A DNA stretch of 61,783 nt, taken from a virus. Lineage: Duplodnaviria; Caudoviricetes. The notes beneath the pieces were generated by a model. It ran no database searches. It was not told the origin of the DNA and worked only from the letters and a program-made list of their open reading frames with translations. The DNA lies in IMG/VR virus record IMGVR_UViG_3300030102_000228, positions 1-61,783 of that record; one strand, written 5' to 3'. The stretch's first letter is position 1; each line of letters opens with the position of its first letter. Positions 27,538 through 40,671 of the stretch are shown piece after piece. Both the position numbers and the translations under genes were made by a program.

Positions 27538-27544
27538 GCAAAAT

Positions 27545-27574
27545 ATTACATAGTGCGAAAAAAATTTTTGTCAA
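27545..27574 (-). promoter_or_regulatory. Possible sigma70-type promoter for the late arm
   Basis: TTGACA at 27574-27569 followed by an AT-rich -10 region (TATGTAATAT); spacing imperfect. Confidence 0.4.
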
Positions 27575-27842: not shown

Positions 27843-27860
27843 GTTAGGGAATTCCCTAAC
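27843..27860. repeat. 18-bp palindrome copy 1 (GTTAGGGAATTCCCTAAC)
   Basis: Exact; degenerate 14/18 copy adjacent at 27863-27880. Confidence 0.95.
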
Positions 27861-27912
27861 TTGTTAGGGGATTGTCTAGCCTTAACTTCTTTTGTCATGA
27901 AAGGAAAAAGCT

Positions 27913-28464
27913 ATGACAAACTCTATCATTACAGACGGTATCTTGAACGCAATCCCTGTTGAAGTGAAGAAAGCATATCACGCCGACCAGTCGGCTGAGA
28001 AAGCTTTTGTCAAAAAACGGGGCGCGTTTATTGACTTGTGTTACTCTCTCAACATTCGGTCAAACATGGTTCAGTCTCCAAAGACTGGCGGCATGATTAC
28101 CGAAGAGGCATTCGAGGAACTGAATGCTATGATTGTTAGCGAATTTCCAGCTAATGAACAGAAGCTATTGGCTATGCCTGCCAAGGCGGTTCCAGAAGGT
28201 CGTAAAGATGTGAGGAAACAACTTCAGCAGAAGATTGGTTCCAAGCGGAAAGACCTAAAGAATGCTCTCAAGAGGCGTGAAGAGTTACACGCCCAAGGCA
28301 AAGGGGCGGACACTATCCGCACCAGAACATCTGAAGAGATATTGGCAAACTCTCTCACAGATGCCTTGAAGAGAGTGCAAACTCTTGAGGAACCGACTTT
28401 CGATGTTGAGGCTTTTGTTGAACACATCGAGGCGGCTCAGGAAGTCATGAAACAAGGTCTGTAA
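27913..28464 (+). CDS. First early gene, hypothetical helical protein
   Basis: 183 aa; RBS GAAAGGAAAAAG. Confidence 0.8.
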   Translation: MTNSIITDGILNAIPVEVKKAYHADQSAEKAFVKKRGAFIDLCYSLNIRSNMVQSPKTGGMITEEAFEELNAMIVSEFPANEQKLLAMPAKAVPEGRKDVRKQLQQKIGSKRKDLKNALKRREELHAQGKGADTIRTRTSEEILANSLTDALKRVQTLEEPTFDVEAFVEHIEAAQEVMKQGL

Positions 28465-28473
28465 ACAACTTAG

Positions 28474-28509
28474 GGCGAGGCAGTCAGACTGCCTCGCCTG
28501 TCTCTTTTT
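28474..28509 (+). terminator. Stem-loop, possible terminator
   Basis: GGCGAGGCAGT/ACTGCCTCGCC stem followed by TCTCTTTTT. Confidence 0.55.
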
Positions 28510-28523
28510 GGAAAGGAAAAATC

Positions 28524-28850
28524 ATGAAACTATCTGACAGTGAAAATCAACTTGCAACTTCTGGTATTACTCAAGAGGAATTGGAAGATTGGTTATCTAA
28601 ATCTGAAGAGACTGGCTCTTACCGAGGCTACGGTCGTCATACTATTGCTATGGCACTGCTAGCTAAGATTGAGGCTAACCAAAGAATAGCTGATATGAAC
28701 AAGGCAATGGCTGAGTCACTAGAAGAGATTGACCTAGCCGAATTGGATAAGGTCAACGAAAAATGGAAACGTGCTAACTCTAGTTGGTTAGAACGGTATA
28801 AGACTGTTGATGAGAAACGAAAGAAGTTGATGTACTACTTATCTCTATAA
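28524..28850 (+). CDS. Second early gene, hypothetical
   Basis: 108 aa; RBS GGAAAGGAAAAA. Confidence 0.8.
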   Translation: MKLSDSENQLATSGITQEELEDWLSKSEETGSYRGYGRHTIAMALLAKIEANQRIADMNKAMAESLEEIDLAELDKVNEKWKRANSSWLERYKTVDEKRKKLMYYLSL

Positions 28851-28857
28851 CAAATTT

Positions 28858-28887
28858 AGGCAGGGCTTTTTAGTCCTGCCTTTTTTT
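28858..28887 (+). terminator. Rho-independent terminator
   Basis: AGGCAGGGC-ttttta-GTCCTGCCT plus T-run. Confidence 0.85.
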
Positions 28888-28904
28888 GTGCCAAAATTTT
28901 GGCT

Positions 28905-29064
28905 GAAGCCAGTTCCCAGTGCCGCGTTGAGTCCAGGCGGATTCGGTATTGCCCACGCACACAAAGAAGTTAGGGAATTCCCTAACCCACAACGAAGCCA
29001 GTTCTCAGTGCCGCGTGGAGTCCATGCCTGTGGCGATGCCAGTTCTCGATGCCGCGTGTAGCCA
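28905..29064 (+). repeat. Three ~31-bp direct repeats GAWGCCAGTTCYCRRTGCCGCGT
   Basis: Copies at 28905, 28994 and 29035. Confidence 0.85.
28969..28986. repeat. 18-bp palindrome copy 2
   Basis: Exact. Confidence 0.95.
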
Positions 29065-29396
29065 ATGTTCTAAATGTTCCGTTGAATGTTCCAGAATGTT
29101 CTTTTTTATTTCAGCAAAAACGTACATTATGTTTTCGTGGTAAATCGTGACAAGGCGTGTTGGGCAAAGGTTTCCTGTGTTAGGGAATTCCCTAACTCGT
29201 AGGTGTATATATATAATGTTCTTTTTTTAAATTATTACTATCCCAGATTAAATTGACCAGAACAAGTTATGGTATGTACGCTTTTCTGTTCACCTACCTG
29301 TGGCGAGGTATCTACTTCTTAAATCACGGAACATTAGAACATTGTAAGTTTTACAGTGAGTTACTCAGCTACATTTTACGAACAATAGCGAACAAT
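29064..29396. other. Putative replication origin: converging AATGTTC/GAACATT iterons around AT-rich DNA
   Basis: AATGTTC at 29064, 29073, 29085, 29095, 29215; GAACATT at 29329, 29337; GAACAAT at 29380, 29390. Confidence 0.45.
29179..29196. repeat. 18-bp palindrome copy 3
   Basis: Exact. Confidence 0.95.
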
Positions 29397-29433
29397 ACAC
29401 AGCTTGGCACTATATACCACCATTTGTTATTAT

Positions 29434-29462
29434 TTGACATTTAATCACACTTGTAGTATAAT
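29434..29462 (+). promoter_or_regulatory. Consensus sigma70 promoter
   Basis: TTGACA (29434-39), 17 bp spacer, TATAAT (29457-62). Confidence 0.9.
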
Positions 29463-29468
29463 ATAAAG

Positions 29469-29516
29469 ATAGTGAGAGATTGGCTCGTTTTTTCCTTTCA
29501 TGGCCTCTCTCACTAT
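29469..29516 (+). ncRNA. Leader hairpin with anti-Shine-Dalgarno loop (candidate antisense RNA)
   Basis: 11-bp stem ATAGTGAGAGA/TCTCTCACTAT; loop TTTTTCCTTTCATG complementary to 27896-27909. Confidence 0.6.
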
Positions 29517-29549
29517 ACACCACAACACGTTGTCAAGAGGAGACATACA

Positions 29550-30485
29550 ATGACATCGCAAACAAACACACTGGTTACAACACCAACCAATGTTAGGGAA
29601 TTCCCTAACTCCACCGAAACTGCACCGACACTATCTTCTAGTGCCATGCTTGTTGAGTTATCCGTCTCATGTTGGACAGGACGCAAGAAAGACAAGCGTG
29701 CGTCACAAGACGTTACTGCAAGCAACGGTGCGGATGATGGCGTTGCTAATGTTCACAAGAAGCTACTTGCTGATTGCGAAGAATTGGTAGCGATACAAAA
29801 GTTTGTCGGTAACGTGCGTAACATACATTACGCATCTACACTGGCATGGTCAGACACTGGACTGCGCCTGTTACCAACAACAGCGTACTTTAAGTATCAC
29901 CAACAGATGACCGAATTGCAGACAGAGTTCTTCCGTTTGGAAAACATCTTTTCCTCTGGATACGATTGGGTTGTTACTCAAGCACAGGCCAAGCTAGGTA
30001 GCTTATGGGTTGCTGACGACTATCCAACTGTTGAAAGCATACGCAAGAAGTTTGGTTTCCGTCTGTCGTACATACCGTTGCCCGAAGCTGGTGACTTCCG
30101 TATTGATGTCGGTAATGAGGCCATGACACAAATCAAGTCTGAGTATCAGGCATTTTACGAGCGCACTTTCAACACAGCTATGAAGGACGTATGGCAACGT
30201 GTTTATGACGCATTGTCTCGTATGTCTGAGCGATTGGATTATTCTGACACTGAGAAGAAGCGTGTGTTTCGTGATACGCTAGTCAGCAACGCAACCGACT
30301 TGATTGACCTATTGGATATTTGCAACGTGTCACAAGACACACAAATGTCTGCACTGAAACTACAGTTAGAGGAGACACTATCTGGTGTCACACCTGATGG
30401 CTTGCGTGATGACGAGTACCTACGCAAGCAGACCAAAGCCAACGTGGACAGCATCATCGCAAACCTTCCCTCGTTGGATATATAA
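29550..30485 (+). CDS. DUF3150-like protein
   Basis: Start MTSQTN with AAGAGGAG RBS; LSVSCWTGRKKD...KKLL...YPTVESIRKKFGF pattern; upstream of AAA/vWA pair. Confidence 0.55.
   Translation: MTSQTNTLVTTPTNVREFPNSTETAPTLSSSAMLVELSVSCWTGRKKDKRASQDVTASNGADDGVANVHKKLLADCEELVAIQKFVGNVRNIHYASTLAWSDTGLRLLPTTAYFKYHQQMTELQTEFFRLENIFSSGYDWVVTQAQAKLGSLWVADDYPTVESIRKKFGFRLSYIPLPEAGDFRIDVGNEAMTQIKSEYQAFYERTFNTAMKDVWQRVYDALSRMSERLDYSDTEKKRVFRDTLVSNATDLIDLLDICNVSQDTQMSALKLQLEETLSGVTPDGLRDDEYLRKQTKANVDSIIANLPSLDI
29592..29609. repeat. 18-bp palindrome copy 4 (inside CDS)
   Basis: Exact; read as VREFPN. Confidence 0.95.
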
Positions 30486-30503
30486 GTTAGGGAATTCCCT
30501 AAC
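30486..30503. repeat. 18-bp palindrome copy 5
   Basis: Exact; immediately after TAA. Confidence 0.95.
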
Positions 30504-30530
30504 ATCAACCTTTGTCAAATGGAGAACAAA

Positions 30531-31625
30531 ATGACAAATCAAGCAATCCAAATGTATGCACTTAACCTTGACCAAATCACACAGGCTATCAAGGCCAACG
30601 GTCACAAACGCACAATGCTTGTGCAAGGCCACATGGGTACAGGTAAGTCATCAATCCTTAACGTGTTATCACAAGAGTTACCTAATCATATACCGTGTTA
30701 CTTTGATTGTACCACCAAAGATTTGGGTGACGTTATGATACCGAAGATGAGCGAAGCCGAAGGCAAAGACTATGTGGCTTTTGCGCTCAACGAAGAACTT
30801 GGTGTACATCATGGCAAGCCAGTCATCCTCATGATTGATGAGTATGGCAAGGCAAACCCTGCGGTCAAGAACGCACTGTTACGTCTTATGTTGGAGCGCA
30901 AGACAGGCGGTCACACACTACATCCAGACAGCATCGTGTTTGCTACAACAAATTTGGGTGCAGAGGGTGTCGGTGACTTGTTACCACCTCATGCTCGTAA
31001 TCGTATCGCTGTCGTTACTTCACGCAAGCCAAGCAATACCGAATGGATTGAATGGGGTATCAACAACGAGATTGACCACAGCTTGCTCGGTTGGTGTAAA
31101 GACAACCCACAACTGTTTGCATCTTTTGATGAGGTCAAAGACCCTGACGAAAACCCGTACATCTTTCATCCAAAGACACAACGTGCGGCATTCGTTACAC
31201 CTCGCTCATTGGAAGCTGCATCTGATTGGTTGAAACAACGTGCCTCTTATGATGACCAGACACTTACGGCTGTTCTCATGGGTACGATTGGTGAGCGTGG
31301 CGCAATGGACTTGATGGCGTTTGTCAAGATGTCTGACCAACTACCAACTTTGGAAAGCATCAAGACTGACCCGAAAAATGCCAAAGTGCCTGACAGTGCC
31401 GCCGCAGTTTGTATGGTTGTGTATCGCACACTAGCAAGTTTGGACAAGGATTGGGTCAATCAATGGATGGACTATCTTGTTCGTCTCGACAAAGAGGCAC
31501 AGGGTATGTTTGCCAATGGCGTACGCAATCCGAAGTATTCCAAGCAGTCACTTGTTATGACCAACAAGAAGTTTACTGAATGGGCTATGCAGAACAACTA
31601 TATGTTTGCGGCAGACAAAGCATAG
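30531..31625 (+). CDS. MoxR-like AAA+ ATPase
   Basis: Walker A GHMGTGKS; Walker B ILMIDE; sensor ATTN; TPRS. Confidence 0.85.
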   Translation: MTNQAIQMYALNLDQITQAIKANGHKRTMLVQGHMGTGKSSILNVLSQELPNHIPCYFDCTTKDLGDVMIPKMSEAEGKDYVAFALNEELGVHHGKPVILMIDEYGKANPAVKNALLRLMLERKTGGHTLHPDSIVFATTNLGAEGVGDLLPPHARNRIAVVTSRKPSNTEWIEWGINNEIDHSLLGWCKDNPQLFASFDEVKDPDENPYIFHPKTQRAAFVTPRSLEAASDWLKQRASYDDQTLTAVLMGTIGERGAMDLMAFVKMSDQLPTLESIKTDPKNAKVPDSAAAVCMVVYRTLASLDKDWVNQWMDYLVRLDKEAQGMFANGVRNPKYSKQSLVMTNKKFTEWAMQNNYMFAADKA

Positions 31626-31642
31626 TTAGGGAATTCCCTAAC
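31625..31642. repeat. 18-bp palindrome copy 6
   Basis: Exact; overlaps the stop codon. Confidence 0.95.
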
Positions 31643-31661
31643 TCAATCAATGGAGAATGAT

Positions 31662-32858
31662 ATGTTAGCAATAGGAAAAAATCTTACCACGGAACAACGG
31701 CTGTCAAAGGCCGTTGTCGATATCATGGCAAATCCAAAGTACATCGCACTCGCTGGTGTCCTCATGATTGGCAACCGTAGTATTGACAACACCAAAGCAC
31801 CGACAGCTTGCACCAACGGCAGAGACGAATGGTACAATTCCGAATTCGTTGACAAACTGTCTGACCCTCAACTGCGGTTTCTTGTCCTGCACGAAGTGTA
31901 CCACAAATTGTACAAGCACTTGATTACGTGGCAACATCTTTACAAGGACAACCCGAAGAAGGCCAACATCGCGTGTGACTATGTAATCAACATCAAGATT
32001 ACTGATGACAACAAAGATGGTTGGGCTGTCATGCCTGACGGTGGTTTCATCAACGAGAAGTATCGTGGCTGGGATAGTGCGGCAGTTTACGCTGACCTCG
32101 ATGACAACTGCGGTGGCGATGACAACGATGGTGATGACAGTGGCAATGGTCATGGTGGTTTCGATGAACACGATTGGGATGGCGCACAAGAACTGTCTGA
32201 CGCAGAAAAGCGTGACCTTTCTCGAGACTTGGATGAAGCAATCCGACAAGGTGCGCTCGTTGCTGGCAAGACTGGTTCTGGTGGTGACAGAGAACTTGCC
32301 GAGTTACTGCAACCACAAGTCAACTGGCGTGAGGTGTTACGTGAATTCGTGACAACAACTTGTCAGGGAAGCGACTATAGTACCTGGGCCAGGCCTAATC
32401 GTAGATACATAGCAACAGGTTATTATATGCCAAGCGGTATCAGTGAGAAGGTAGATGAACTTGTCATCGCTGGTGATATGTCTGGGTCAATCGGACAGCA
32501 CGAAATATCTGTCATACTCACTGAGGCCAAGTCAATATGTGACACTGTGAAACCTGACAAGGTACGCATCTTGTATTGGGATACCAAAGTCTGTGCTGAT
32601 GAAGTCTACGAACAGCACGAACTGGATGATATGGTAAACTCCACCAAACCTGCTGGCGGTGGCGGTACAACTGTGTCTTGTGTTCCTGAATACATGACAG
32701 ACAAGAACATCACACCACAAGCTGTTATCGTGATTACTGACGGTTATCTTGGTAGCGACTGGGGTAGCTGGTCTTGTCCTGTCCTGTGGGTAATCATCGA
32801 CAACAACACGATTGCACCGTCTGGTGTGACGCTTCATGTCAAAACCACTGACCTGTAA
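31662..32858 (+). CDS. DUF2201-type metallopeptidase + vWA-like protein
   Basis: PTACTNG; HEVYH (HExxH); NIACDYVIN; MIDAS DMSGS; GGGGT; ITDG. Confidence 0.85.
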   Translation: MLAIGKNLTTEQRLSKAVVDIMANPKYIALAGVLMIGNRSIDNTKAPTACTNGRDEWYNSEFVDKLSDPQLRFLVLHEVYHKLYKHLITWQHLYKDNPKKANIACDYVINIKITDDNKDGWAVMPDGGFINEKYRGWDSAAVYADLDDNCGGDDNDGDDSGNGHGGFDEHDWDGAQELSDAEKRDLSRDLDEAIRQGALVAGKTGSGGDRELAELLQPQVNWREVLREFVTTTCQGSDYSTWARPNRRYIATGYYMPSGISEKVDELVIAGDMSGSIGQHEISVILTEAKSICDTVKPDKVRILYWDTKVCADEVYEQHELDDMVNSTKPAGGGGTTVSCVPEYMTDKNITPQAVIVITDGYLGSDWGSWSCPVLWVIIDNNTIAPSGVTLHVKTTDL

Positions 32859-32862
32859 CAAA

Positions 32863-32880
32863 GTTAGGGAATTCCCTAAC
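32863..32880. repeat. 18-bp palindrome copy 7
   Basis: Exact; intergenic. Confidence 0.95.
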
Positions 32881-32899
32881 TTCACCTATGGAGGACGTA

Positions 32900-33406
32900 A
32901 TGGGCTATCGCTCAGAAGTATTCATCGCTGTCGCACTGCCAACCATTCCTGTTTTGTCGGAACTGGTTTCTGTGTATGCCATCGACCCTCGAGTTCAAAA
33001 ATGTCAGACCGTTGAGGACTGGTTGTTGAAAGAACAGGAATATCCAAACGGAAGTCGGTACGGTGGGCCATTTTACACCATGACTTATCACCACGAACAT
33101 ACCAAATGGTATGACGCATACGATGACGTTGGGGCTTTCATGCACCTCGGCAAACTATGTTCAACCTTTGCAGAAGAACGTGGTGATATGTTCTCATACG
33201 CATACAGATTTTGTCGCATCGGAGAGGAGCATGGCGACATAGAAGTAGACTCGCATGAGTCAGAAGATGGTCTGGGTCAAGCCATGTCTGATGAACTAAA
33301 TGACCTAGTGTATCCTGTGCAGATGTTGGAGATTGTCAACAGAGGTACAGATTGTCGACTAAACATAACCCCAAGTGGGTCTTTGCAAATCCAAAGAGGA
33401 GAATAA
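32900..33406 (+). CDS. Hypothetical protein
   Basis: MGYRSEV...KWY...FCRIGEE; GGAGG RBS. Confidence 0.75.
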   Translation: MGYRSEVFIAVALPTIPVLSELVSVYAIDPRVQKCQTVEDWLLKEQEYPNGSRYGGPFYTMTYHHEHTKWYDAYDDVGAFMHLGKLCSTFAEERGDMFSYAYRFCRIGEEHGDIEVDSHESEDGLGQAMSDELNDLVYPVQMLEIVNRGTDCRLNITPSGSLQIQRGE

Positions 33407-33408
33407 AA

Positions 33409-34458
33409 ATGGCATTATATTATTTCAACCACATCAAATTTTCTGAGGTGGAAAGACTTTATGACAGCACCAAGCCTGTCGTATCCAAGAACCACAGTAA
33501 GGCTGATGACGTTAGACCCATCGGGGACAGGAGACGTAAGTGGGAACGTGTAAAGAAGATATCACCTGACTGCTATCTGTTTCTTGATGGTTGTTACGGT
33601 GATGATGTATTCGGAGTGAGCGTGTGGAATCCTGACTACAAGGGAGCAACCCAAGAAGAAGTGGTTGCCTTTGCACCTATCAAGTGGGAGCGCAAATCAT
33701 GTGGTAACGAGTTTGTATCAATACGCAACGGTATTGGAGACTACGCACACACTGGACGCTATCAATTCATAAGTCGCAACCTACCAACAGGTTTGAGATT
33801 TATTGTACGGAATGGCAAGCAATTCGTATGTAACGACAGCAACTCGTATTATCTGCCCAAAGGCAAAGACATACCGAAGTCTTTGTATGAATACCGAAAG
33901 TCGCAAGGATATCGAAATGCTGAGAATGTGGAAACGTACACTCACGACCCACGAAACGCAGAGCTAGTATTCATGCGTGTAAACAACTCATGGCGTCTTG
34001 CACAAGACGAACACGCTCTGCCGAAACCACCTCGTACCTTGGTCAACAAACAACTCAAGGACAAATACAAGAAGGACATCGAGAAGTTTCGTGAGTACGT
34101 GTTTTCTATTGCACCTATGTTTGACACATCATCGGGGCAGGTTGGTTGGCACAACTACAACTGGGAGCAGAACAGGCAGATGAACACGGACTACCGTGAA
34201 GCGTGTGTAGAGGAGTTTCCAGATGTTGTCACACCAAACACGGGCAATATGCAACTAGACACCATTCCTGCAGAACTTGCAATACGTGTGATAAAGGACT
34301 ATAATAGTAAGATAAGATATTATCTTGCCTACCAGTTTGCGATACATTCTGATATTAGAAGTATCCAGACACAAGAAGATAGTAACAGAGTGAAGTCACA
34401 ATTCAATCGCTGGATAAACAAAATGTGTGGCTTTACCTACGTTGAAGACCGTAGTTAG
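33409..34458 (+). CDS. Hypothetical protein
   Basis: Start MALYYF with AAAGAGGAG RBS. Confidence 0.8.
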   Translation: MALYYFNHIKFSEVERLYDSTKPVVSKNHSKADDVRPIGDRRRKWERVKKISPDCYLFLDGCYGDDVFGVSVWNPDYKGATQEEVVAFAPIKWERKSCGNEFVSIRNGIGDYAHTGRYQFISRNLPTGLRFIVRNGKQFVCNDSNSYYLPKGKDIPKSLYEYRKSQGYRNAENVETYTHDPRNAELVFMRVNNSWRLAQDEHALPKPPRTLVNKQLKDKYKKDIEKFREYVFSIAPMFDTSSGQVGWHNYNWEQNRQMNTDYREACVEEFPDVVTPNTGNMQLDTIPAELAIRVIKDYNSKIRYYLAYQFAIHSDIRSIQTQEDSNRVKSQFNRWINKMCGFTYVEDRS

Positions 34459-34471
34459 GGAATTCCCTAAC
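34454..34471. repeat. 18-bp palindrome copy 8
   Basis: Exact; supplies the TAG stop of the upstream gene. Confidence 0.95.
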
Positions 34472-34492
34472 TACTACAAAGAGGAGACTAAA

Positions 34493-35356
34493 ATGGCTAA
34501 TTACGAACCAATCCCTGTGAGCAGTGCAAAGAAAATGCACAGCAACACACCCGACAGTGTATTACCAGACGAACTTGTTGTGCTGTGTGACAGACTGCAA
34601 CGCGCGATGCGTGGCATAAAGTTTGCGAACAAAAGCAAAAACAAAATCTGGTGTTACTTACCTAATCATCCGTTGACCATTGGTTACATTACATACGGTC
34701 AGCTACAGGATGACACAACCAATCGCTTGTGGGGTATTGTCTCGCATACCATAGACAATGGTAAGTATTCCGAATACAGAGTGGAGCGCAGAACTAAAAT
34801 GACTAGCAAGCTGGAGACAGCAGTGAAGCTGGCTAAGAAGTTTATGCGTCCTCACACTCTGCTTGAACTCAACAAGTACGCAAAGTCTGATATGACTTAC
34901 GAACTGTCGAAGTTGGCAAGCGATGCTAGAGACACCGCCACTACCGCTATACGCACTATCGGTGAGGATACTTTGTGGGCAGAGTTAAAGCGTCTATACC
35001 AGACTGACCATGAGTTTCATGACCCAACACTGCGTGACAAGTTAACACAAATGTACGAAGCTGAAGCACGAGCATCTCAGATAAAAGAAAAGTACAAGAC
35101 AGGTAACGGACTGCGTATGGCATTTGTCAACATATCGGAGTCTGTGTCGGGTCAACGGTTTGAATGTGCTGAAGTCAAACGCCCCACAAGTAGTTGGGAA
35201 CATGAGTTTGAGGACACCCATGTTTACTATGGCAGTGACTTACCAGAACATCTTACTGGTGCAATCGCTGTTCTAAGTATGCTTGGAGACAAAGAGTTTG
35301 TTGAGGGTGTCGGTTTCAAATGCAGTGACACTATGTACTATGTCGAACTACCTTAG
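34493..35356 (+). CDS. Hypothetical protein
   Basis: Start MANYEP with AAAGAGGAG RBS. Confidence 0.8.
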   Translation: MANYEPIPVSSAKKMHSNTPDSVLPDELVVLCDRLQRAMRGIKFANKSKNKIWCYLPNHPLTIGYITYGQLQDDTTNRLWGIVSHTIDNGKYSEYRVERRTKMTSKLETAVKLAKKFMRPHTLLELNKYAKSDMTYELSKLASDARDTATTAIRTIGEDTLWAELKRLYQTDHEFHDPTLRDKLTQMYEAEARASQIKEKYKTGNGLRMAFVNISESVSGQRFECAEVKRPTSSWEHEFEDTHVYYGSDLPEHLTGAIAVLSMLGDKEFVEGVGFKCSDTMYYVELP

Positions 35357-35630
35357 TATATCGGATGACAACATATATCGTGTATCAATAGACCCTGACA
35401 CCAAACTAGTCGAAATGGTATCTCTTGGTATGTTTAATGTTGACCCACAGCTGGAAGGGTTCTATGATGATGTAGATGACCTTCCAGTATGGGCGCAGGA
35501 AAAGTTGTCAGTGCTTATGTTATGCGATGCAGTGCCACCAACGCAAGAGATTGATGGTGTGGGTAAGCGAATAAGCACTCACGTTTACTGGCTGTACAAA
35601 TTGGAGATGGAAAATGAGAATGATGGATAG
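35340..35630 (+). CDS. Hypothetical protein
   Basis: DDLPVWAQEKLSVLML...IDGVG resembles the C-terminus of the preceding gene (SDLPEHLTGAIAVLSML...VEGVG). Confidence 0.7.
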   Translation: MSNYLSISDDNIYRVSIDPDTKLVEMVSLGMFNVDPQLEGFYDDVDDLPVWAQEKLSVLMLCDAVPPTQEIDGVGKRISTHVYWLYKLEMENENDG

Positions 35631-35805
35631 AGTAAAAAACAGAGCAAGAGTTACAAGCGTTATTCTGGGTGGGGCATTAGTTTATTTTCTAATTGCCATG
35701 ACAGCCCTGTTTTGGTTTGACTGGCTCTGGATGTTGGGTGTCGAAGAAAGTCAACGCTACACATGGTGGGGCGTGATTTATGGATTATCCAACGGTGGTT
35801 GGTAG
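35614..35805 (+). CDS. Small membrane protein
   Basis: Long hydrophobic, Trp-rich segment. Confidence 0.65.
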   Translation: MRMMDRVKNRARVTSVILGGALVYFLIAMTALFWFDWLWMLGVEESQRYTWWGVIYGLSNGGW

Positions 35806-35822
35806 TTAGGGAATTCCCTAAC
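35805..35822. repeat. 18-bp palindrome copy 9
   Basis: Exact; overlaps the stop codon. Confidence 0.95.
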
Positions 35823-35831
35823 TTTTGAATA

Positions 35832-35951
35832 GAGGTCAGGTTTTTGTGTTTCCTTTCCCCTGACCTCGAAGTGGCGGTTAGAGTGTAGTGTGTGCCGCCA
35901 CAAAAAGTGGGTGACAGCTTTGCCAAGTGGTGTTGTTGGGGCTGTCACCCA
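35832..35951 (+). ncRNA. Array of three large-loop hairpins (candidate sRNA)
   Basis: Stems 35832-40/35859-67, 35871-77/35895-901, 35908-18/35941-51. Confidence 0.55.
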
Positions 35952-36211
35952 TGATACCAGTTTTTACAAATGTAAGGTTTGAGGAAGTGATAGACACAAA
36001 AAAGATTGCTAATTTTTTCTGGGCGCATAGGCATAGGGATTTCTACCCCTTAGACGCACATAACGAAATCGATCCAGATTTTGATGAGTACCATGTATGT
36101 AAAGATGTTTTCATAGAAGAACCATATCGCTGTAAATCAACGGTTCTTTCAGAGAAGGTAGTGCGTGGCTTCAAGAAAGCGGAGAACGGAGAGGACGATG
36201 AGAGTAAATAA
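35951..36211 (+). CDS. Hypothetical protein
   Basis: ORF; start uncertain. Confidence 0.55.
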   Translation: MIPVFTNVRFEEVIDTKKIANFFWAHRHRDFYPLDAHNEIDPDFDEYHVCKDVFIEEPYRCKSTVLSEKVVRGFKKAENGEDDESK

Positions 36212-36608
36212 TCATCAGGGCTTGTGGGAAAAAGGTAACAAGAAATGCCTTTGCTGTAACAAAACTATTGCTGAGTTAAAAGAAGACTACAAAAAATTTA
36301 ATGACTTCAGAAAGGCCGCAGAACTCACCGCACAAACAAGAGCGATGCTTCTTAACGGCTTCTATGATTACATCAGTATTGAAACACATGGTAATCACTT
36401 TTGGTATACTTGGATGGGCAATACCTGTAGGTCTTGTAGCGGTGCGCCTCAGACGGTAGGGGAGATGTTTCTGGCGGTATATTCTGAAGGCGATTGGCTA
36501 TGCGACAAATGTTATGCTCGTAATCCACAAGACACGAAAGGCCGCTGGAAGTTTGCGCCATTGCCTGATGACGAAGAAATTGACGAAGACTACTTGACAA
36601 TGCCATAA
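36198..36608 (+). CDS. Cys-rich hypothetical protein
   Basis: CLCC, CRSC, CDKC; GAGAGG RBS. Confidence 0.65.
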   Translation: MRVNNHQGLWEKGNKKCLCCNKTIAELKEDYKKFNDFRKAAELTAQTRAMLLNGFYDYISIETHGNHFWYTWMGNTCRSCSGAPQTVGEMFLAVYSEGDWLCDKCYARNPQDTKGRWKFAPLPDDEEIDEDYLTMP

Positions 36609-36644
36609 ACTATCGTCAACTATCTAATGGTGAGGTAGGGTTCT

Positions 36645-37055
36645 ATGACACCAGAAGCAAAAGTAAAAAAGAAAGTAGTGGGTATTCTGAAGCGTTTAGG
36701 TGCGTACTACTTTTATCCTGTAACAGGTGGCTATGGCAGAAGCGGTGTGCCTGATGTTGTTGGATGTTATGAAGGTAAATTTTTTGGAATAGAATGTAAG
36801 GCAGGTACAAACACACCAACTGCATTACAAGAAAAGAACTTACGAGATATAGAACACAATATGGGTATTGCTCTTGTCATAAACGAAGATAACATTGATG
36901 AGGTTGAAATAGAGCTAACCCAAAGCGCTGCAGCACGTAGCAAACGTAACACACAGAAAGACGTTATACCTGATATCGACAACATGACTGACGAAGAATT
37001 AGAAGATTGGATATTTTCTGGTTCTGCTAATCCAGAAGATTTTGATGATAAATAA
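36645..37055 (+). CDS. VRR-NUC domain nuclease (Holliday junction resolvase-like)
   Basis: TPEAKVK...GVPDVV...FFGIECKAG...TALQ. Confidence 0.85.
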   Translation: MTPEAKVKKKVVGILKRLGAYYFYPVTGGYGRSGVPDVVGCYEGKFFGIECKAGTNTPTALQEKNLRDIEHNMGIALVINEDNIDEVEIELTQSAAARSKRNTQKDVIPDIDNMTDEELEDWIFSGSANPEDFDDK

Positions 37056-37218
37056 AGTCACTATAAAAGAAAAAGGTTTCTTTCAAAAAGCATACGAGAA
37101 TGGGGTATGCCCCAAGTGTAGTTGTAAAGTTGATTACACAAAAGAACCAATAGTCTGTTCAGTATGTAGCTTACAGATTTCTTATGGAGTGAAGGATGAC
37201 AGAACGAGAGAAACTTAA
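37045..37218 (+). CDS. 57-aa zinc-ribbon protein, not in ORF track
   Basis: CPKC...CSVC. Confidence 0.55.
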   Translation: MINKVTIKEKGFFQKAYENGVCPKCSCKVDYTKEPIVCSVCSLQISYGVKDDRTRET

Positions 37219-37354
37219 AGAGTGGCTAAAAACGTCACCCTTTATGTGGACTATCATTGACAGCGTTAGTGACAACAACGCTATAGTCGTTGAATTTGAG
37301 GTAGTCCAAAATAACCGAGACGGACAACAGGAGTTGCCTCTCGAAACAACCTAG
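37196..37354 (+). CDS. 52-aa hypothetical protein, not in ORF track
   Basis: MTEREKLKEWLKTSPF...QQELPL; GGAG RBS. Confidence 0.55.
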   Translation: MTEREKLKEWLKTSPFMWTIIDSVSDNNAIVVEFEVVQNNRDGQQELPLETT

Positions 37355-37371
37355 CCAAAATGGAGAATAAC

Positions 37372-37815
37372 ATGGCAAGAAAAAAGATGACTAAACAAGA
37401 GAAGGTTTGGAAGTATTTAATAAAAAATCCACTGGCCTCTACAAAAGACATAGCAGAGAAAGTGGGGTGTACACCTAAATATGTTTACTCACTCAGGAGT
37501 AAGACAGGTACGCCTAAAGAAATACTTGCGAAAGATATTAAACCACTAATGCCGCCACGCACAAAGGTGTTGACACAAGCAGACAAGCTGGTCAATGGCG
37601 CAAGGGCGGCTGAGTACGGTGACGCAAAGCAGAACTTTGAAGACATAGCAAAGTTATGGTCTGTGTTATTGGAGACAGAAGTGACCGCCCAACAGGTAGC
37701 ACTGTGCATGATTGCAGTAAAATCAGCTAGGCTGATGAAGTCAGCCAGTCACGATAGCTGGGTAGACATTTGCGGTTACGGTGCGCTCGGTGGCGAGTTG
37801 CATGAAAAAGTGTGA
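37372..37815 (+). CDS. HTH + DUF6378-like protein
   Basis: N-terminal HTH (TKDIAEKVGCTPKYV); LVNGARAAEYGD...NFEDIAKLW...DSWVDICGY. Confidence 0.75.
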   Translation: MARKKMTKQEKVWKYLIKNPLASTKDIAEKVGCTPKYVYSLRSKTGTPKEILAKDIKPLMPPRTKVLTQADKLVNGARAAEYGDAKQNFEDIAKLWSVLLETEVTAQQVALCMIAVKSARLMKSASHDSWVDICGYGALGGELHEKV

Positions 37816-37972
37816 CGAATGTAACAAGGATGCCATTGTGGAGAGCGGTGGCATCCTTATTTGTGCAGAATGTTACATGAGAAAAGTGAAAGAGGAACAA
37901 CGTGGATTTAATCACTCTAGATTTCGAGACATACTACAGCCAAGATTTCAGTCTGAGCAAAGCAACGACTGA
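37802..37972 (+). CDS. Small zinc-ribbon protein
   Basis: CDEC...CAEC; overlaps the polymerase start. Confidence 0.45.
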   Translation: MKKCDECNKDAIVESGGILICAECYMRKVKEEQRGFNHSRFRDILQPRFQSEQSND

Positions 37973-39728
37973 AGAATATGTGCGTGACCCTAAATTTCAA
38001 GTCATTGGCGTAGGTATAAAAGTAAATGACAATCCGTGCGAGTGGGCAAGTGGTACACACGAACAAGTTAAGGAATACTTATCAACCTTTGCCTGGGATC
38101 AATCAATGTTGTTGTGTCATAACACTATGTTTGATGGGGCAATCTTAAATTGGATTTTTGATATTAGACCAAAAGCGTATGCAGACACTATGTGTATTGC
38201 CAGAGCGATACATGGTGTGGAGACAAGCGCAAGTCTGAGAGCCATAAGTGAAAAGTATGGCGTGGGCGAAAAAGGTTTTGAAGTTATAAATGCGAAGGGC
38301 AAAAGACGAGAGGACTTCACACCAGAAGAACTTTCTCGTTACGGAGACTACTGCGTAAATGACGTAGACCTTACTTGTAAGCTGTTCAAGATGATGGCAA
38401 AAGGTTTCCCAAAAACAGAACTAAAACTTATTGACCTGACCCTGCGTATGTTCATAGAGCCTACGCTGGAACTAGACCTTGGATTGCTAGAGCAACACCT
38501 AATCGAAACTAGAGACCGTAAAGACGAACTGTTAGAAGAAGTAGGGGTATCGAAAGAAGAACTGATGAGCAACCAAAAATTTGCTGAGTTGCTACAGAAC
38601 TTAGGAGTAGAGCCGCCTACAAAAATAAGTCTAACCACAGGCAAAGAGACATTTGCATTTGCCAAAACAGACGAAGCGTTCAAGGCACTAGCGGAACATG
38701 AGAATGACAAGGTACAATCGCTTGTATCAGCTAGGCTTGGAACTAAGAGTACGTTAGAGGAAACACGCACACAGAGGTTTATAGATATAGCCAAGCGTGG
38801 GAAGCTACCCGTACCTATTCGTTACTATGCCGCACACACTGGCAGATGGGGTGGCGATGACAAAATTAATCTGCAAAACCTACCAAGCCGTGGAGTAAAC
38901 GGCAAAAAACTAAAGCGTGGCATCATAGCCCCCGAAGGCTACACTCTTATCGATGCTGACTCTGCACAAATCGAAGCGAGAGTATTGGCATGGTTGGCTG
39001 AACAGGACGACCTGACACAAGCGTTTGCCAAAGGAGAAGATGTTTATGTGAAGATGGCTTCTCGTATCTACGGCGTGCCAGAAGAAGATGTTACAAAAGA
39101 CCAGAGATTTGTAGGAAAGACTACAATTCTTGGTGCTGGTTATGGCATGGGCGCAGTCAGATTTACAGAACAGCTAAAGAACTTTGGGTTTGACATGGAA
39201 CTGCATGAGGCCCGCAGAGTTATAAATATATACCGTGACGCCAACTGGAAGATAAAACATTTGTGGCGAGACGCACAGAATATGTTGATAAACCTGACCC
39301 GTGGTGACACGTACGAATTTGGTAGGGCAGGTGTCATAGGTATCAGCAGCTTACACAAGGCTTTGATATTACCGTCTAACTTGTTATTACACTACACCGA
39401 CCTTAGAGCTACCCCCACCGACAAGGGTGTAGATATGGATTACCAGACAAGGAAGGGTAGGACTAGGATTTACGGTGGTAAAGTTATAGAGAACGTGTGC
39501 CAAGCAATAGCACGTTGTATTATTGGCGAACAGATGTTAAAAATAGCTAGTAAATACAAAGTTGTAATGACGGTGCATGACAGCATAGTGTGTTGCGTAC
39601 CTGATGATGAAGTCTTTGAAGCCCAGCAGTACGTGGAAACTTGTATGCGTTGGTGTCCAGATTGGGCAGAAGGACTACCAATTAACTGCGAAAGCGGTGC
39701 AGGCAAGTCTTACGGAGATTGTGAGTGA
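37902..39728 (+). CDS. polA: DNA polymerase, family A, with 3'-5' exonuclease
   Basis: Exo I DFETY; HNTMFD; motif A DSAQIEAR; motif B RFVGKTTILGAGYG; motif C VHDS. Confidence 0.95.
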   Translation: MDLITLDFETYYSQDFSLSKATTEEYVRDPKFQVIGVGIKVNDNPCEWASGTHEQVKEYLSTFAWDQSMLLCHNTMFDGAILNWIFDIRPKAYADTMCIARAIHGVETSASLRAISEKYGVGEKGFEVINAKGKRREDFTPEELSRYGDYCVNDVDLTCKLFKMMAKGFPKTELKLIDLTLRMFIEPTLELDLGLLEQHLIETRDRKDELLEEVGVSKEELMSNQKFAELLQNLGVEPPTKISLTTGKETFAFAKTDEAFKALAEHENDKVQSLVSARLGTKSTLEETRTQRFIDIAKRGKLPVPIRYYAAHTGRWGGDDKINLQNLPSRGVNGKKLKRGIIAPEGYTLIDADSAQIEARVLAWLAEQDDLTQAFAKGEDVYVKMASRIYGVPEEDVTKDQRFVGKTTILGAGYGMGAVRFTEQLKNFGFDMELHEARRVINIYRDANWKIKHLWRDAQNMLINLTRGDTYEFGRAGVIGISSLHKALILPSNLLLHYTDLRATPTDKGVDMDYQTRKGRTRIYGGKVIENVCQAIARCIIGEQMLKIASKYKVVMTVHDSIVCCVPDDEVFEAQQYVETCMRWCPDWAEGLPINCESGAGKSYGDCE

Positions 39729-40387
39729 GTGAAAAGTGGTCTTTCAGCAGGCTTAAATCTTTTGAGCAATGTCCGAAACAGTTTTATCATGTCAAGGTTG
39801 CTAAAGAATATGAAGAACCTGAGACTGAAGCTATGCTTTATGGTTCTGAGTTTCACAAGGCTTGCGAAGATTACGTCAGGGATAGAGTATCTATCCCAAA
39901 GAAATTTGCTTACATAATAAATACCTTAGACGCTTTGATTGCCAAACAAGGTGAGAAGCTGTGTGAATATAGGATGGGAGTAACGAAAGATTTAGAGCCT
40001 TGTTCTTTCTTTGCCGAAAATGTCTGGTGGCGTGGCATAGCAGATTTGGTTATACTTAACGGAGAAGAAGCTACCGTCATAGATTATAAAACGGGAAAGT
40101 CTACTAGGTACGCAGACAAAGGACAGCTAGAACTTATGGCTCTGGCTACATTCAAACACTTCCCTGTAGTTAAGAAAGTAAAAGCAGGGCTTTTGTTTGT
40201 TGTCTGTAACGAGTTAATACGTGATAGCTACACTGCGGATCAGCAGCCAGACCTTTGGAAGAAGTGGATTAATAAATATGGTGTGCTGGAAGCGGCTTTT
40301 AAAAATAACGTATGGAACCCAAATCCTAGTGGGCTATGCCGCAGACACTGTGTAGTATTAGAATGTCCACATAATGGGAGAAGCTGA
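39725..40387 (+). CDS. PD-(D/E)XK (Cas4-like) exonuclease
   Basis: SFSRLKSFEQCP...GIADL...IDYKTG...QLELM...C-terminal Cys cluster. Confidence 0.85.
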   Translation: MSEKWSFSRLKSFEQCPKQFYHVKVAKEYEEPETEAMLYGSEFHKACEDYVRDRVSIPKKFAYIINTLDALIAKQGEKLCEYRMGVTKDLEPCSFFAENVWWRGIADLVILNGEEATVIDYKTGKSTRYADKGQLELMALATFKHFPVVKKVKAGLLFVVCNELIRDSYTADQQPDLWKKWINKYGVLEAAFKNNVWNPNPSGLCRRHCVVLECPHNGRS

Positions 40388-40644
40388 TGCCCTATACAAA
40401 ATCAAAACGCCCGTACAAGAAAGAGTACCAACAGCAGAAGGCTAGGGGCGAACATGAAAACAGAATGGAACGTCAGCGAGCAAGACGTAAGCTGGACAAG
40501 AAGGGTGTCAAGCGTAAAGGCAAAGACGTAGCCCACAACAAAGCGTTGAGTAAAGGTGGTTCTAACAAAGATGGGGTAAGACTGCAAAGCCGAAAGAGGA
40601 ACAGGGCGGCTGGCGGTAGAATGAGTAGCCCGAAGAAAGCTTAG
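40387..40644 (+). CDS. Small basic HNH-like protein
   Basis: GKDVAHNKALSKGGSN...NR. Confidence 0.6.
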   Translation: MPYTKSKRPYKKEYQQQKARGEHENRMERQRARRKLDKKGVKRKGKDVAHNKALSKGGSNKDGVRLQSRKRNRAAGGRMSSPKKA

Positions 40645-40657
40645 GGAATTCCCTAAC
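40640..40657. repeat. 18-bp palindrome copy 10 (17/18)
   Basis: CTTAGGGAATTCCCTAAC; supplies the TAG stop. Confidence 0.9.
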
Positions 40658-40671
40658 ACTTGGAGATAAGA

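Follow-up and report, generated by a model that had tools for sequence, protein, structure and literature searches.

The window, by which we mean the whole stretch of DNA analysed, is a complete virus record of 61,783 bp (CheckV 100% complete) that carries an 18-bp palindrome, GTTAGGGAATTCCCTAAC, in nine exact copies and one 17/18 copy. An exhaustive scan of both strands at up to three mismatches recovered all of the positions given in an initial annotation, including the 17/18 copy at 40640, and placed all ten within the plus-strand early arm, between 27843 and 40657. As that annotation had also noticed, the 40-kb late arm is free of copies: the full window, on both strands, holds no match at up to three mismatches outside 27843-40657, and because the record is complete this absence is real for this genome. 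The chance expectation is 0.01 matches per dinucleotide shuffle, and ten matches were reached in none of 100 shuffles. Widening the search to six mismatches added one degenerate copy (14/18), which starts 2 bp past the end of copy 1, and seven further matches, each with six mismatches, that look like chance. The copies and the features discussed with them are as follows.

27843..27860: copy 1, exact, in the gap between the divergent late arm (leftward) and first early gene (rightward, ATG 27913)
27863..27880: degenerate copy GTTAGGGGATTGTCTAGC, 14/18, in tandem with copy 1
27913..28464, plus strand: first early gene, 183 aa, of no known family and fast-evolving (20-28% identity across the alignment)
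28969..28986: copy 2, exact, in a non-coding gap behind two terminator-like hairpins
29179..29196: copy 3, exact, about 290 nt upstream of the main early promoter's predicted start
29404-29433: second promoter-like site
29434..29462, plus strand: sigma-70 consensus promoter TTGACA-17-TATAAT, 12/12 matches in a scan for the consensus only
29592..29609: copy 4, exact, in the DUF3150-like gene at codons 15-20, at about +123 of the predicted transcript
30486..30503: copy 5, exact, at the DUF3150/AAA(MoxR) junction; TAA stop ends at 30485; GGAG 17 nt downstream
31625..31642: copy 6, exact, at the AAA/DUF2201 junction; TAG stop 31623-31625 ends on its first G; GGAG 9 nt downstream
32863..32880: copy 7, exact, 4 nt after the DUF2201 TAA stop (32856-32858); GGAGG 9 nt downstream
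34454..34471: copy 8, exact; its left arm contains TAG stop 34456-34458 of gene 33409-34458; GAGGAG 9 nt downstream, then ATG 34493
35805..35822: copy 9, exact; its G is common to TAG stop 35803-35805 of gene 35614-35805; then a 9-bp stem-loop at about 35832-35867
40640..40657: copy 10, CTTAGGGAATTCCCTAAC, 17/18, first base C; its left arm contains TAG stop 40642-40644 of gene 40387-40644; GGAG 4 nt downstream, then the SNF2 helicase gene (ATG 40672)
42663..42938, plus strand: excisionase/MerR-like helix-turn-helix protein gene

These coordinates confirm that six sites touch, contain or closely trail stop codons; five of the six stop-codon-associated sites are followed by GGAG or GAGG 4-17 nt downstream and then by an ATG, the exception being the site at 35805 with its stem-loop. 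Copy 1 and its degenerate neighbour together form a larger inverted repeat of 40 nt, and the first early gene is followed by a terminator-like hairpin at 28473-28499. Copy 2 lies about 500 nt upstream of the main early promoter's predicted start, and TATATATATAAT is found 9 nt past copy 3, as it is at 7433 in the closest relative, L007. The promoter at 29434..29462 is predicted to drive the DUF3150/AAA/VWA early operon, in which the DUF3150-like gene has its true start at ATG 29550, preceded by the ribosome-binding sequence AGAGGAGA.

The initial annotation was correct that most copies are not at promoters, yet the sites keep a fixed relation to them: 12 of the 13 strong sigma-70 promoters predicted in early arms have a site at +37 to +139. 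No site overlaps a strong promoter itself, and some lie upstream of one behind terminator-like hairpins, among them those at 28969 and 29179 in the window; the 5221 site of L050 is at -87 from a 12/12 promoter. The sites themselves contain neither a promoter nor a run of T.

A clade-wide cis-element, of which the 18-mer is the form present in this phage, consists of a loosely constrained centre flanked by two invariant 6-8-bp inverted arms; it keeps its early-arm positions while its sequence shifts lineage by lineage. The initial annotation had raised the question of whether relatives carry palindromes of their own, and they do: a single inverted repeat with 7-bp arms is present three or more times in 44 of 80 related IMG/VR loci, and in 37 of the 54 loci of at least 10 kb, with a recurring arm in 0 of 80 shuffled controls. 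About 22 arm types are represented, the majority beginning GTTA. This uncultured marine phage and dozens of relatives each have their own palindrome of 17-19 bases, in 8-15 copies among the earliest-expressed genes. Its confinement to the early arm holds in all five complete genomes (window 10/10, G001 13/13, G002 8/8, G003 15/15, G004 9/9; 45/45 for the four relatives combined), and in the marine clade the majority of sites stand in transcribed DNA, immediately 5' of a ribosome-binding site. Rhizobium phage RHph_TM3_14A, which is cultured and distantly related, has 27 (A/G)TTACC-N4-6-GGTAA(C/T) sites, of which the GTTACC-N6-GGTAAC form measures 18 bp; about half of the 27 fall inside coding sequences when the site list is read against the annotation table.

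Orthologous junctions are occupied in 11 mapped loci, and L007 has a positional counterpart for nine of the ten window sites. Copy 1 has its counterpart 5' of the first early gene in L007, L029, L033, L021 and L009; the place of copy 4 is filled within the N-terminal coding part in L007, L009, L021 and L062, and 5' of the ribosome-binding site in L047, L022, L050, L033 and L070. Of 47 distinct upstream sequences from relatives, about 38, as we read them, have a palindrome at the junction of copy 5, and at that of copy 10 each lineage's own palindrome is present in L007, L029, L033 and L021.

Within one genome the arms are invariant and the centre differs in sequence, orientation and sometimes length. 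The outer GTTA-to-TAAC span clusters at 17-19 bp, with arms of 6-8 bp and centres of 2-6 nt. Over 75 oriented GTTAGGG-type sites the consensus centre is the symmetric AATT, which is also the commonest (14 sites); 18 centres are self-complementary, 58 have A at position 1 and 47 have T at position 4, and asymmetric centres are found in both orientations (for example AGTT 5, AACT 4).

Our leading reading, which we hold tentatively, is that the palindromes are duplex-DNA sites for a co-evolving dimeric phage protein that silences or roadblocks early transcription; we infer that a protein reads the sites, as DNA and not as RNA, with early shut-off as the result. Under this model the specificity of a dimeric phage-encoded protein would co-evolve with the arms. 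Host sigma-70 polymerase would initiate at the consensus early promoters, and an early-made factor would accumulate until it occupied the site that follows each promoter by 40-140 bp, as well as those at successive gene junctions, where it would block or silence transcription of the early arm, functionally like stoperators or KorB operators. The initial annotation had argued for a dimeric protein from near-invariance that included the centre. That argument stands for this genome, where all ten copies share AATT, and fails in L007, where the same arms enclose nine different 4-nt and two different 3-nt centres at 13 sites; a dimeric-protein DNA site is partly supported and remains the leading reading. 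Judged from sequence, the concerted and lineage-specific evolution of the sites, their confinement to the early arm, the symmetry of the centre, the 17-19 bp span and the 12/13 promoter relation all point to duplex DNA, as do the sites upstream of promoters and the intragenic sites of the Rhizobium phage.

The main competitor is an RNA stem-loop, a possible but somewhat doubtful account in which every cistron of the early polycistronic mRNA has a 7-10-bp hairpin immediately before its ribosome-binding site. A phage-encoded protein that recognises the stem sequence would read it, for instance an endoribonuclease that processes the message or a repressor of translation; alternatively, the hairpin would act alone as a stabiliser or insulator. 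In both cases the outcome would be class-specific control of early messages, comparable to T4 RegB or RegA. The hairpin has a predicted folding energy of about -10 kcal/mol and does not occlude the ribosome-binding site, five window sites precede GGAG and ATG by 4-17 nt, and the predicted 5' leaders of 12 of the 13 strong promoters contain a site; such positions 5' of ribosome-binding sites in transcribed DNA are equally compatible with an RNA role. The element is fused with the ribosome-binding site and start codon in both the L077 lineage and the Rhizobium phage. The arms, moreover, keep pairing while the centre differs in sequence and, within a genome, in length by 1 nt (4 nt at 11 sites and 3 nt at two in L007; 5 nt at 16 and 6 nt at two in L051, which has 6-bp arms; three sites against one in L038), a change that a rigid dimer would disfavour. 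Compensatory arm variants occur as a hairpin would predict: GTTATGC..GCATAAC twice in L040, GTATGCC..GGCATAC in L042/L051 and GTGTAAC..GTTACAC in L062. All nine centres of G004 are C on the sense strand, which also tells against duplex DNA, as do the lack of avoidance of lone arms elsewhere in the genomes (40 observed vs 39.8 expected) and the fact that sites never overlap strong promoters.

Other evidence weighs against RNA. Self-complementary, orientation-free centres favour DNA because an RNA loop needs neither property, and sense-strand G-U mismatches are not in excess among arm mismatches (GT/TG 12 vs AC/CA 28, counted before removal of about nine register artefacts). Some copies sit behind terminators and upstream of strong promoters, and about half of the Rhizobium-phage sites are intragenic. 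In GC-rich relatives the upstream flank pairs over 6-8 bp with the centre at 15 of 48 sites (shuffled flanks: mean 5.2, maximum 11 in 1000 shuffles), so that a putative alternative G+C-rich hairpin would compete with the arm-arm hairpin in RNA; we count this pairing in favour of duplex DNA. A role for structure alone fails to explain arms that are identical within a genome yet different between lineages, and it is rare for a protein to read the sequence of a stem.

Some features of the centres suggest instead a palindrome that is self-homogenising or mobile and lacks a dedicated reader; its copies would be kept identical by hairpin-mediated template switching or short-patch recombination, and its role at junctions would be at most generic (a hairpin, a stop codon). 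The same centre, or its reverse complement, recurs within L021 (CTA/TAG, GCT twice with AGC, CTT/AAG) and within L007 (TATT twice with AATA, AACT/AGTT, TTT/AAA), and the 70 orthologous sites aligned between close relatives include three multi-base flips of the whole centre. In L012 and L013 a second palindrome is inserted where the right arm should be, and L040 has two arm types and one hybrid site. We nevertheless consider this explanation unlikely: some ten junctions are alike occupied across lineages whose palindromes are barely similar, the early-arm confinement holds in five of five complete genomes, no transposase or HUH family of Pfam or PHROG matched the scanned ORFs, and host genomes show no pile-up of copies. 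The fixed promoter relation, too, argues for selection.

The hybrid site in L040 would also fit a proposal of the initial annotation, that the palindromes are gene-cassette recombination points; like the PeSL cassettes discussed below, they would then guide modular gene shuffling between co-infecting relatives. Some indels and replacements adjoin sites (L042/L051 at 2281 and 5029), and two deletions between repeats are described in Cluster O phages (PMC4351075). The breakpoint comparison speaks against it: across 13 pairs with a common arm type, in a crude test on ORFs that we called ourselves, alignment breakpoints fell at 12 of 49 site junctions and 44 of 157 site-free ones (odds ratio 0.83, p = 0.71). 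As the sites, unlike PeSLs, also contain neither promoter nor T run, cassette exchange is very improbable.

Duplex-DNA sites for a co-evolving dimeric protein require a binder, and we found no arm-co-varying protein of the helix-turn-helix, ribbon-helix-helix or ParB family, which counts against that reading. The product of 27913..28464 is a possible candidate for the factor binding the sites, and the DUF3150-like protein, likewise named in the initial annotation, may be another. Two proteins named in the initial annotation drop out: the recognition helix of the 42663 helix-turn-helix protein is invariant across 14 lineages with different arms, so this protein cannot set specificity, and neither can the 37360 protein (annotated as a helix-turn-helix protein at 37372), since its N-terminal part is absent from five palindrome-bearing relatives. 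A T7-like RNA polymerase had no match in the genome, and no integrase or repressor family was matched among the ORFs scanned.

The initial annotation's suggestion of parS-like loading sites fares poorly as well. A sliding or condensing protein of the parS, KorB or Noc kind might organise, segregate or protect the early arm, or a host factor might use the sites. The genome has several operator-sized palindromes, some near promoters and others distant or intragenic, and the KorB operator classes on RK2 show a similar spread, near promoters, far away and inside genes. The outer bases resemble the ends of the KorB and KorA operators (TTTAG..CTAAA and GTTTAG..CTAAAC). A six-frame search of the genome, however, gave no ParB N-terminal domain, with the control detected in 11 of 14 genomes; ParA was not found, the AAA protein being of the MoxR type. 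About 22 lineage-specific versions speak against a single host factor, and among 185,579 species genomes the 18-mer occurs in four, once each and at about chance level, with no host genome repeating it; the known host repressor operator that the initial annotation had envisaged did not turn up. We regard both variants as highly unlikely.

Similar repeats have already been described in a few other phages and never explained. T4-type PeSL cassettes (Arbiol et al., 2010, PMC2839356) are likewise repeated intergenic hairpin elements of early-gene regions, but each has its own sigma-70 promoter and functional terminator, and they mediate shuffling, whereas our sites have neither promoter nor T run and breakpoints are not enriched at them. 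The stoperators of Cluster A mycobacteriophages (L5, Bxb1) share the many copies in intergenic gaps downstream of promoters; their specificity co-evolves with a phage protein, and blocked transcript elongation is the working model (PMC4351075, PMC4319613). As described there, they are asymmetric 13-bp sites, oriented with transcription and dispersed genome-wide, and are bound by the monomeric immunity repressor of temperate phages, in contrast to the palindromic, early-arm sites here, where no repressor or integrase family appeared among the ORFs scanned. The start-associated sequences of Cluster K mycobacteriophages, with their extended form (SAS/ESAS; Pope et al., 2011, PMC3203893), are, like ours, found solely in the non-structural genome half and associated with translation starts, with an inverted-repeat consensus that differs between subclusters while positions are kept; they differ in that the SAS is an asymmetric 13-mer containing the ribosome-binding site and the ESAS arms are 17 bp long, imperfect and 4-13 bp apart.

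The nearest described analogues are the inverted repeats of actinobacteriophage Clusters O and EG. Cluster O mycobacteriophages carry a dispersed 17-bp inverted repeat, 5'-TGTTCGGNNNCCGAACA (Cresawn et al., 2015, PMC4351075), which shares with our element 7-bp invariant arms, a short, variable, A/T-rich centre without meaningful orientation, many copies in short intergenic gaps with some near gene 5' ends or intragenic, and tens of copies, densest in the non-structural arm, in a phage that is not obviously temperate. Its authors prefer a dimeric DNA-binding protein as the reader. Phages, hosts and sequence are unrelated to ours, and the 34 copies are genome-wide, one third of them intragenic; the published description of the repeat reports no cross-lineage comparison of differing arm sequences. 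Microbacterium Cluster EG phages have an 18-bp inverted repeat, 5'-GATCAACCNNGGTTGATC (Jacobs-Sera et al., 2020, PMC7302621), that matches ours in length, in its 8-10 copies in short intergenic gaps 14-22 bp upstream of starts, and in its restriction to one genome end with non-structural genes. In that report all three phages have the same sequence, whereas here the arms differ by lineage and the positions are kept.

Scanning both strands with up to three mismatches, we recovered the ten copies of the 18-bp palindrome claimed in the initial annotation, nine of them exact and one, at 40640, matching at 17 of 18 positions; ten or more matches were reached in none of 100 dinucleotide shuffles (mean of 0.01 per shuffle). 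A scan with up to six mismatches added a degenerate 14/18 copy at 27863-27880, 2 bp past the first site, and the remaining seven matches of that scan, with six mismatches each, are chance-like. The window's site is a perfect palindrome spanning 18 bp, with 7-bp arms that lengthen to 9 bp if the central AATT is counted. The record is rated 100% complete by CheckV, and strand skews and open reading frames (ORFs) divide it into a rightward arm at ~27.9-47.4 kb and a leftward arm comprising the rest. The rightward arm encodes a DUF3150-like protein, a MoxR-type AAA ATPase, a DUF2201 peptidase-VWA protein, a family A DNA polymerase, a PD-(D/E)XK exonuclease, an SNF2 helicase, a gp2.5-like single-strand-binding protein and a DUF927 primase, and the leftward arm encodes terminase, portal, head, tail-fibre and lysis proteins together with a 2246-aa protein that has a DarB-like C-terminal part. 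Given the gene content of the two arms, all ten copies therefore lie inside the early/replication arm, as had been claimed.

Features of the window to which the text refers
29434-29462: perfect sigma-70 consensus promoter, the sole 12/12 match within 27000-42000, lying away from the sites
29550-32858: trio of DUF3150, MoxR AAA and DUF2201 peptidase-VWA genes that opens the early operon
47458-54198, minus strand: 2246-aa protein with no Pfam or PDB sequence match

Gene junctions hold six of the copies, which touch, supply or closely follow a stop codon as described before, and five copies have GGAG or GAGG 4-17 nt downstream with an ATG after that. The copy said to be kept intact inside a coding sequence occupies codons 15-20 of the DUF3150-like gene, whose start ATG at 29550 stands behind a strong ribosome-binding site. 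A search for sequencing runs that contain this phage listed none of RNA. Among the listed differences in contigs of four DNA runs, no variant falls within any site. Two contigs from one marine DNA run join 29139 to 29206, omitting 66 bases (29140-29205), among them the palindrome at 29179. Of the 14 GAATTC occurrences in the window, ten are the sites; the centres of relatives lack GAATTC, and the EcoRI site is therefore incidental.

The palindrome belongs to a family of lineage-specific repeats whose places are shared. A search of IMG/VR with the DUF2201 protein retrieved 161 sequences, from which 80 loci at 46-69% identity were kept (here numbered with the prefix L), and 44 of these (37 of the 54 that reach 10 kb) carry three or more copies of one inverted repeat with 7-bp arms; in shuffled controls a recurring arm appeared in none of the 80. 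There are about 22 arm types, the majority beginning with GTTA or a near variant, and a partial list includes GTTAGGG, GTTAGTC, GTTAGTG, GTTATAC, GTTATAG, GTTATAA, GTTGGTC, TTTAGGG, ATTAGGT, GGTAGTG, GTATGCG, TTATGCG and GTCTACA. In gene maps of 11 loci the palindromes occupy the same places as in the window: ahead of the first early gene, in the gap before the DUF3150 gene (two to four copies), at the 5' end of that gene, at the DUF3150/AAA, AAA/DUF2201 and subsequent junctions, and ahead of both a small endonuclease gene and the SNF2 helicase. The closest relative, L007, has a positional counterpart for nine of the ten window sites, and in four complete relatives with 8-15 copies each, every site (13/13, 8/8, 15/15 and 9/9) lies in one 7-19 kb stretch matching the early arm. 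The GTTAGGG type by itself was met again elsewhere among viral contigs, in no fewer than 185 additional stretches. The 17 long loci that lack a 7-bp-arm repeat family include some with other motifs at equivalent places; the L077 lineage, for example, has TTAACAGGAGTTCATAAATG where other lineages have palindromes. We also observed in L077 (6875-11230), and likewise in L071-L076, that TTATTAACAGGAGTTCATAAATG, a start-associated word with the ribosome-binding site inside it, is repeated at the same junctions in loci devoid of 7-bp-arm palindromes. Identical arms that keep fixed places and change jointly between lineages call for either a sequence-specific reader or constant homogenisation.

Within a genome the arms are near-invariant: of the sites counted across 47 genomes, 211 are exact, 33 have a single mismatch and 42 have two mismatches, this last group taking in some chance hits and register artefacts. 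A few of the arm variants are compensatory. The centres of relatives vary, from 1 to 6 nt, between invariant arms; L007, which has the window's arms, carries nine different 4-nt and two different 3-nt centres over 13 sites, and L021 has seven different 3-nt centres over nine. Centre length differs by one at a minority of sites (11+2 in L007, 3+1 in L038, 16+2 in L051 and 10+1 in L070), and the outer GTTA-to-TAAC span is concentrated at 17-19 bp. A downstream ribosome-binding site oriented 75 GTTAGGG-type sites, with 126 showing no such signal and one showing it on both sides; among the oriented sites AATT is the commonest centre (14 of 75), 18 centres are self-complementary, the first centre position is A in 58 and the fourth is T in 47. 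Asymmetric centres were found in either orientation, and in 99 site comparisons between close relatives the centre of the orthologous site was kept in 44, different in 21 and flipped in five (three of these flips involving more than one base), the site was lost in 11 and 18 were unalignable. Elsewhere in five complete genomes there is no avoidance of isolated arms, with 40 observed against 39.8 expected.

Several relatives carry further symmetric motifs at or near their sites. In L012 (694-710) and L013 (1095-1111) a second palindrome of GGTTAGCC/GGCTAACC stands where the right arm of the lineage's own palindrome would be, and in L009 (9904-9920) the GGTTAGCC/GGCTAACC palindrome is everted and directly adjoins the main site, an arrangement absent from L008. 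A composite motif, GACAAAAAGACA-N4-TGTCTAAATGTC, recurs four times in L054 (395-4800) and has four GACA/TGTC half-sites at 8-bp spacing.

Site 29592 lies at about +123 from the predicted start of the consensus promoter at 29434-29462, sites 28969 and 29179 lie ~500 and ~290 nt upstream of the same start, and a terminator-like hairpin follows each of the first two early genes. Nine of 16 scanned early arms contain predicted promoters with 11 or 12 of 12 consensus positions, 13 in total, and for 12 of these 13 a site lies at +37 to +139, the exception being in L050, where the site is at -87. On the plus strand no run of T follows any window site, and a search of 27500-41500 with Rfam returned nothing credible, its three matches each falling far under the gathering score.

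A non-coding gap of ~590 bp (28882-29470) separates the main early promoter from the second early gene. It carries a 34-nt direct repeat in three copies (28905, 28994 and 29035) and, in either orientation, no fewer than seven AATGTTC/GAACATT words; L007 matches it at 76% identity, GAACATT arrays occur in L050 too, and the gap may serve as an origin of replication or as another regulator array. Directly 3' of the consensus promoter, at 29469-29516, an 11-bp perfect inverted repeat (ATAGTGAGAGA and TCTCTCACTAT, 26 nt apart) is therefore predicted to form a stem-loop at the extreme 5' end of the early transcript. The divergent early/late gaps of the window and of L009, L008, L033 and L010 share a conserved word, TGTCAAAACAT (27757-27775 in the window), which lies on either side of the first palindrome and contains TTGACA if read leftward; a 68-aa ORF that overlaps it (27592-27798) may not be a gene.

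We tentatively read the sites as putative duplex-DNA sites of a dimeric protein that would silence or roadblock early transcription, a reading that may well prove wrong. A dimeric protein on duplex DNA is favoured because the symmetry extends into the centre, the centres have no orientation, the span is constant at 17-19 bp, some copies lie upstream of promoters and within genes, and GC-rich lineages have a competing hairpin. In these GC-rich relatives the upstream flank pairs over 6-8 bp with the centre at 15 of 48 sites, against a mean of 5.2 and a maximum of 11 in 1000 flank shuffles. Covarying 8-bp stems such as CGGCTCGC/GCGAGCCG between upstream flank and centre were seen in L039, L040, L042 and L051 (for example, L051 6840-6870), and this pairing would give an alternative hairpin with the left arm as part of its loop.

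That the element acts instead as an RNA stem-loop is, in our estimation, somewhat less likely than the DNA reading, and other readings share the remaining weight. As RNA, the element is predicted to fold into a hairpin of 7-10 bp at about -10 kcal/mol without occluding the ribosome-binding site, and the one-nucleotide changes in centre length, the compensatory arm variants, the close link to ribosome-binding sites and the centres of one complete relative (G004), all C on the sense strand, speak for such a structure. A sense-strand test based on G-U mismatches found no bias. Still less probable is a specific version in which an unrecognised early protein would recognise the stem sequence and, at each boundary between cistrons, cleave or silence the polycistronic early mRNA, thereby retiring it in a Cas6- or RegB-like manner. 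On that version, one marine phage clade would contain about 22 co-evolved specificities of protein for hairpin, a naturally occurring collection of orthogonal RNA tags with their readers.

A candidate for the putative reader protein, chosen by position only, is the 27913 family, the fast-evolving first early gene. A profile search of 5.8 billion proteins with this family found solely unnamed proteins of ~160-185 aa, and its members have no Pfam match. NCBIfam searches of 22 early proteins and protein-atlas searches with 27913 and 33352 returned nothing useful, and profile searches of the fast-evolving early families 33352 and 34493 against the PDB gave nothing credible. Two other proteins were rejected as determinants of the specificity: the helix-turn-helix protein 42663 has a recognition helix that is unchanged across 14 lineages, and the protein 37360 lacks its N-terminal part in five relatives that bear palindromes. 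If the factor is found, the clade would offer a ready-made series of orthogonal site-and-reader pairs, of use in synthetic circuits and in predicting cross-regulation or exclusion among co-infecting relatives.

A megablast search of 27000-41000 against cultured phages found no match, and judged by DNA polymerase no cultured phage is close, the nearest being Rhizobium RHph_TM3-like phages and Pseudomonas phage KPP25 at 32-34% identity. Rhizobium phage RHph_TM3_14A shares the window's genome plan and carries 27 (A/G)TTACC-N4-6-GGTAA(C/T) sites in the 50 kb covered by the scan, 14 of them exact GTTACC-N5-6-GGTAAC, with 21 of the 27 in its early arm. By our reading of its annotation table, about half of these sites lie within annotated genes and the rest at junctions, several of the latter ending 1-3 nt before an ATG with the ribosome-binding site in the centre. 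A repeat family of this kind was not found in the more distant KPP25, and literature searches found no published account of repeats in RHph_TM3 phages. The Rhizobium phages make a bench test of the question possible.

Known systems with which the sites might be identified were compared with them. In parS/ParB or KorB operator systems the element encodes a ParB-family protein with a ParB N-terminal domain; the suggestion of parS-like loading sites found no support, as six-frame searches of the genome yielded no candidate for this domain (PF02195) and the control was positive in 11 of 14 genomes. N4-type early promoters are hairpins with a conserved 3-nt purine-centred loop that are used by a virion RNA polymerase. 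In our material the loops vary, consensus sigma-70 promoters precede the sites, and the 2246-aa virion protein matches a DarB-like PHROG by its C-terminus only; a search for the T7-like polymerase family (PF00940) gave no match, nor did its control anywhere. The final ~800 residues of the 2246-aa protein are similar to this antirestriction PHROG and to large virion proteins of Erwinia, Rhizobium and Vibrio phages. The RNase III sites of T7 early mRNA have long (~20 bp or more), imperfect stems with an internal loop, unlike the predicted stems of 7-10 bp here. REP elements with RAYT proteins have a cognate HUH transposase and many host-chromosome copies; they were rejected, since the 18-mer is not repeated in any host genome and no HUH transposase family appeared in our ORF scans. 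A match to a host operator, named earlier as a possible refutation, likewise did not appear, the 18-mer occurring once each in four of 185,579 species genomes and repeated in none.

Phage repeats of other kinds have single features in common with the sites. As the available excerpts describe them, the stoperators of Cluster A mycobacteriophages are asymmetric, oriented with transcription and tied to an immunity repressor and a temperate life style (PMC4351075, PMC4319613), unlike the perfect palindrome here and the asymmetric centres that occur in both orientations. The ORFs scanned here (32 early-arm and flanking ORFs with Pfam, PHROG and NCBIfam; of the 41 remaining late-arm ORFs, 34 with PHROGs and seven with Pfam) gave no match to an integrase or repressor family, in contrast to stoperator systems, nor to a transposase family. 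The PeSL cassettes of T4-type phages, according to the excerpted report, each comprise a strong sigma-70 promoter and a terminating stem-loop and contain the breakpoints of gene gain, loss and replacement (PMC2839356), whereas here a single 12/12 promoter lies in 27000-42000, away from the sites, and the sites lack a downstream T run on the plus strand. The idea that the sites are cassette recombination points is also not supported, as gene gain/loss breakpoints are not enriched at them: in a crude test of alignment breakpoints between relatives with the same arm type, a breakpoint fell at 12 of 49 junctions with a site and 44 of 157 without (p = 0.71). Stoperators, PeSL cassettes and, in the excerpts available, the start-associated sequences of Cluster K (PMC3203893) are set apart by their defining tests.

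The closest published descriptions are the 17-bp repeat of Cluster O mycobacteriophages (PMC4351075) and the 18-bp repeat of Microbacterium Cluster EG phages (PMC7302621), both of unexplained function in the excerpts available; such dispersed inverted repeats form a descriptive class, not a homologous family. Those excerpts describe repeats of 17-18 bp with invariant 7-8-bp inverted arms and a variable centre of 2-3 nt, in at least eight copies that lie mostly in the non-structural arm, many in short gaps before start codons (PMC4351075, PMC7302621). Our sites are alike in their invariant inverted arms, in their 18-bp span and the variable centre of relatives, and in their ten copies in the non-structural (early) arm, five of them ahead of a ribosome-binding site and ATG; they differ in consensus, and their nearest cultured relatives are not actinobacteriophages. 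Our literature searches for a functional study or explanation of such palindromes found descriptive reports only. Short palindromes repeated in the non-structural arm, reported in passing and without explanation for Clusters O and EG, are now found, identical in anatomy, in cultured phages of Rhizobium and in a marine phage clade that is abundant and uncultured. Beyond those reports, our analysis shows that positions are kept while the sequence changes in concert, in about 22 versions, that the sites come after strong early promoters and that they mark one temporal gene class alone, which points to a general, unrecognised layer of early-gene control via a fast-evolving factor.
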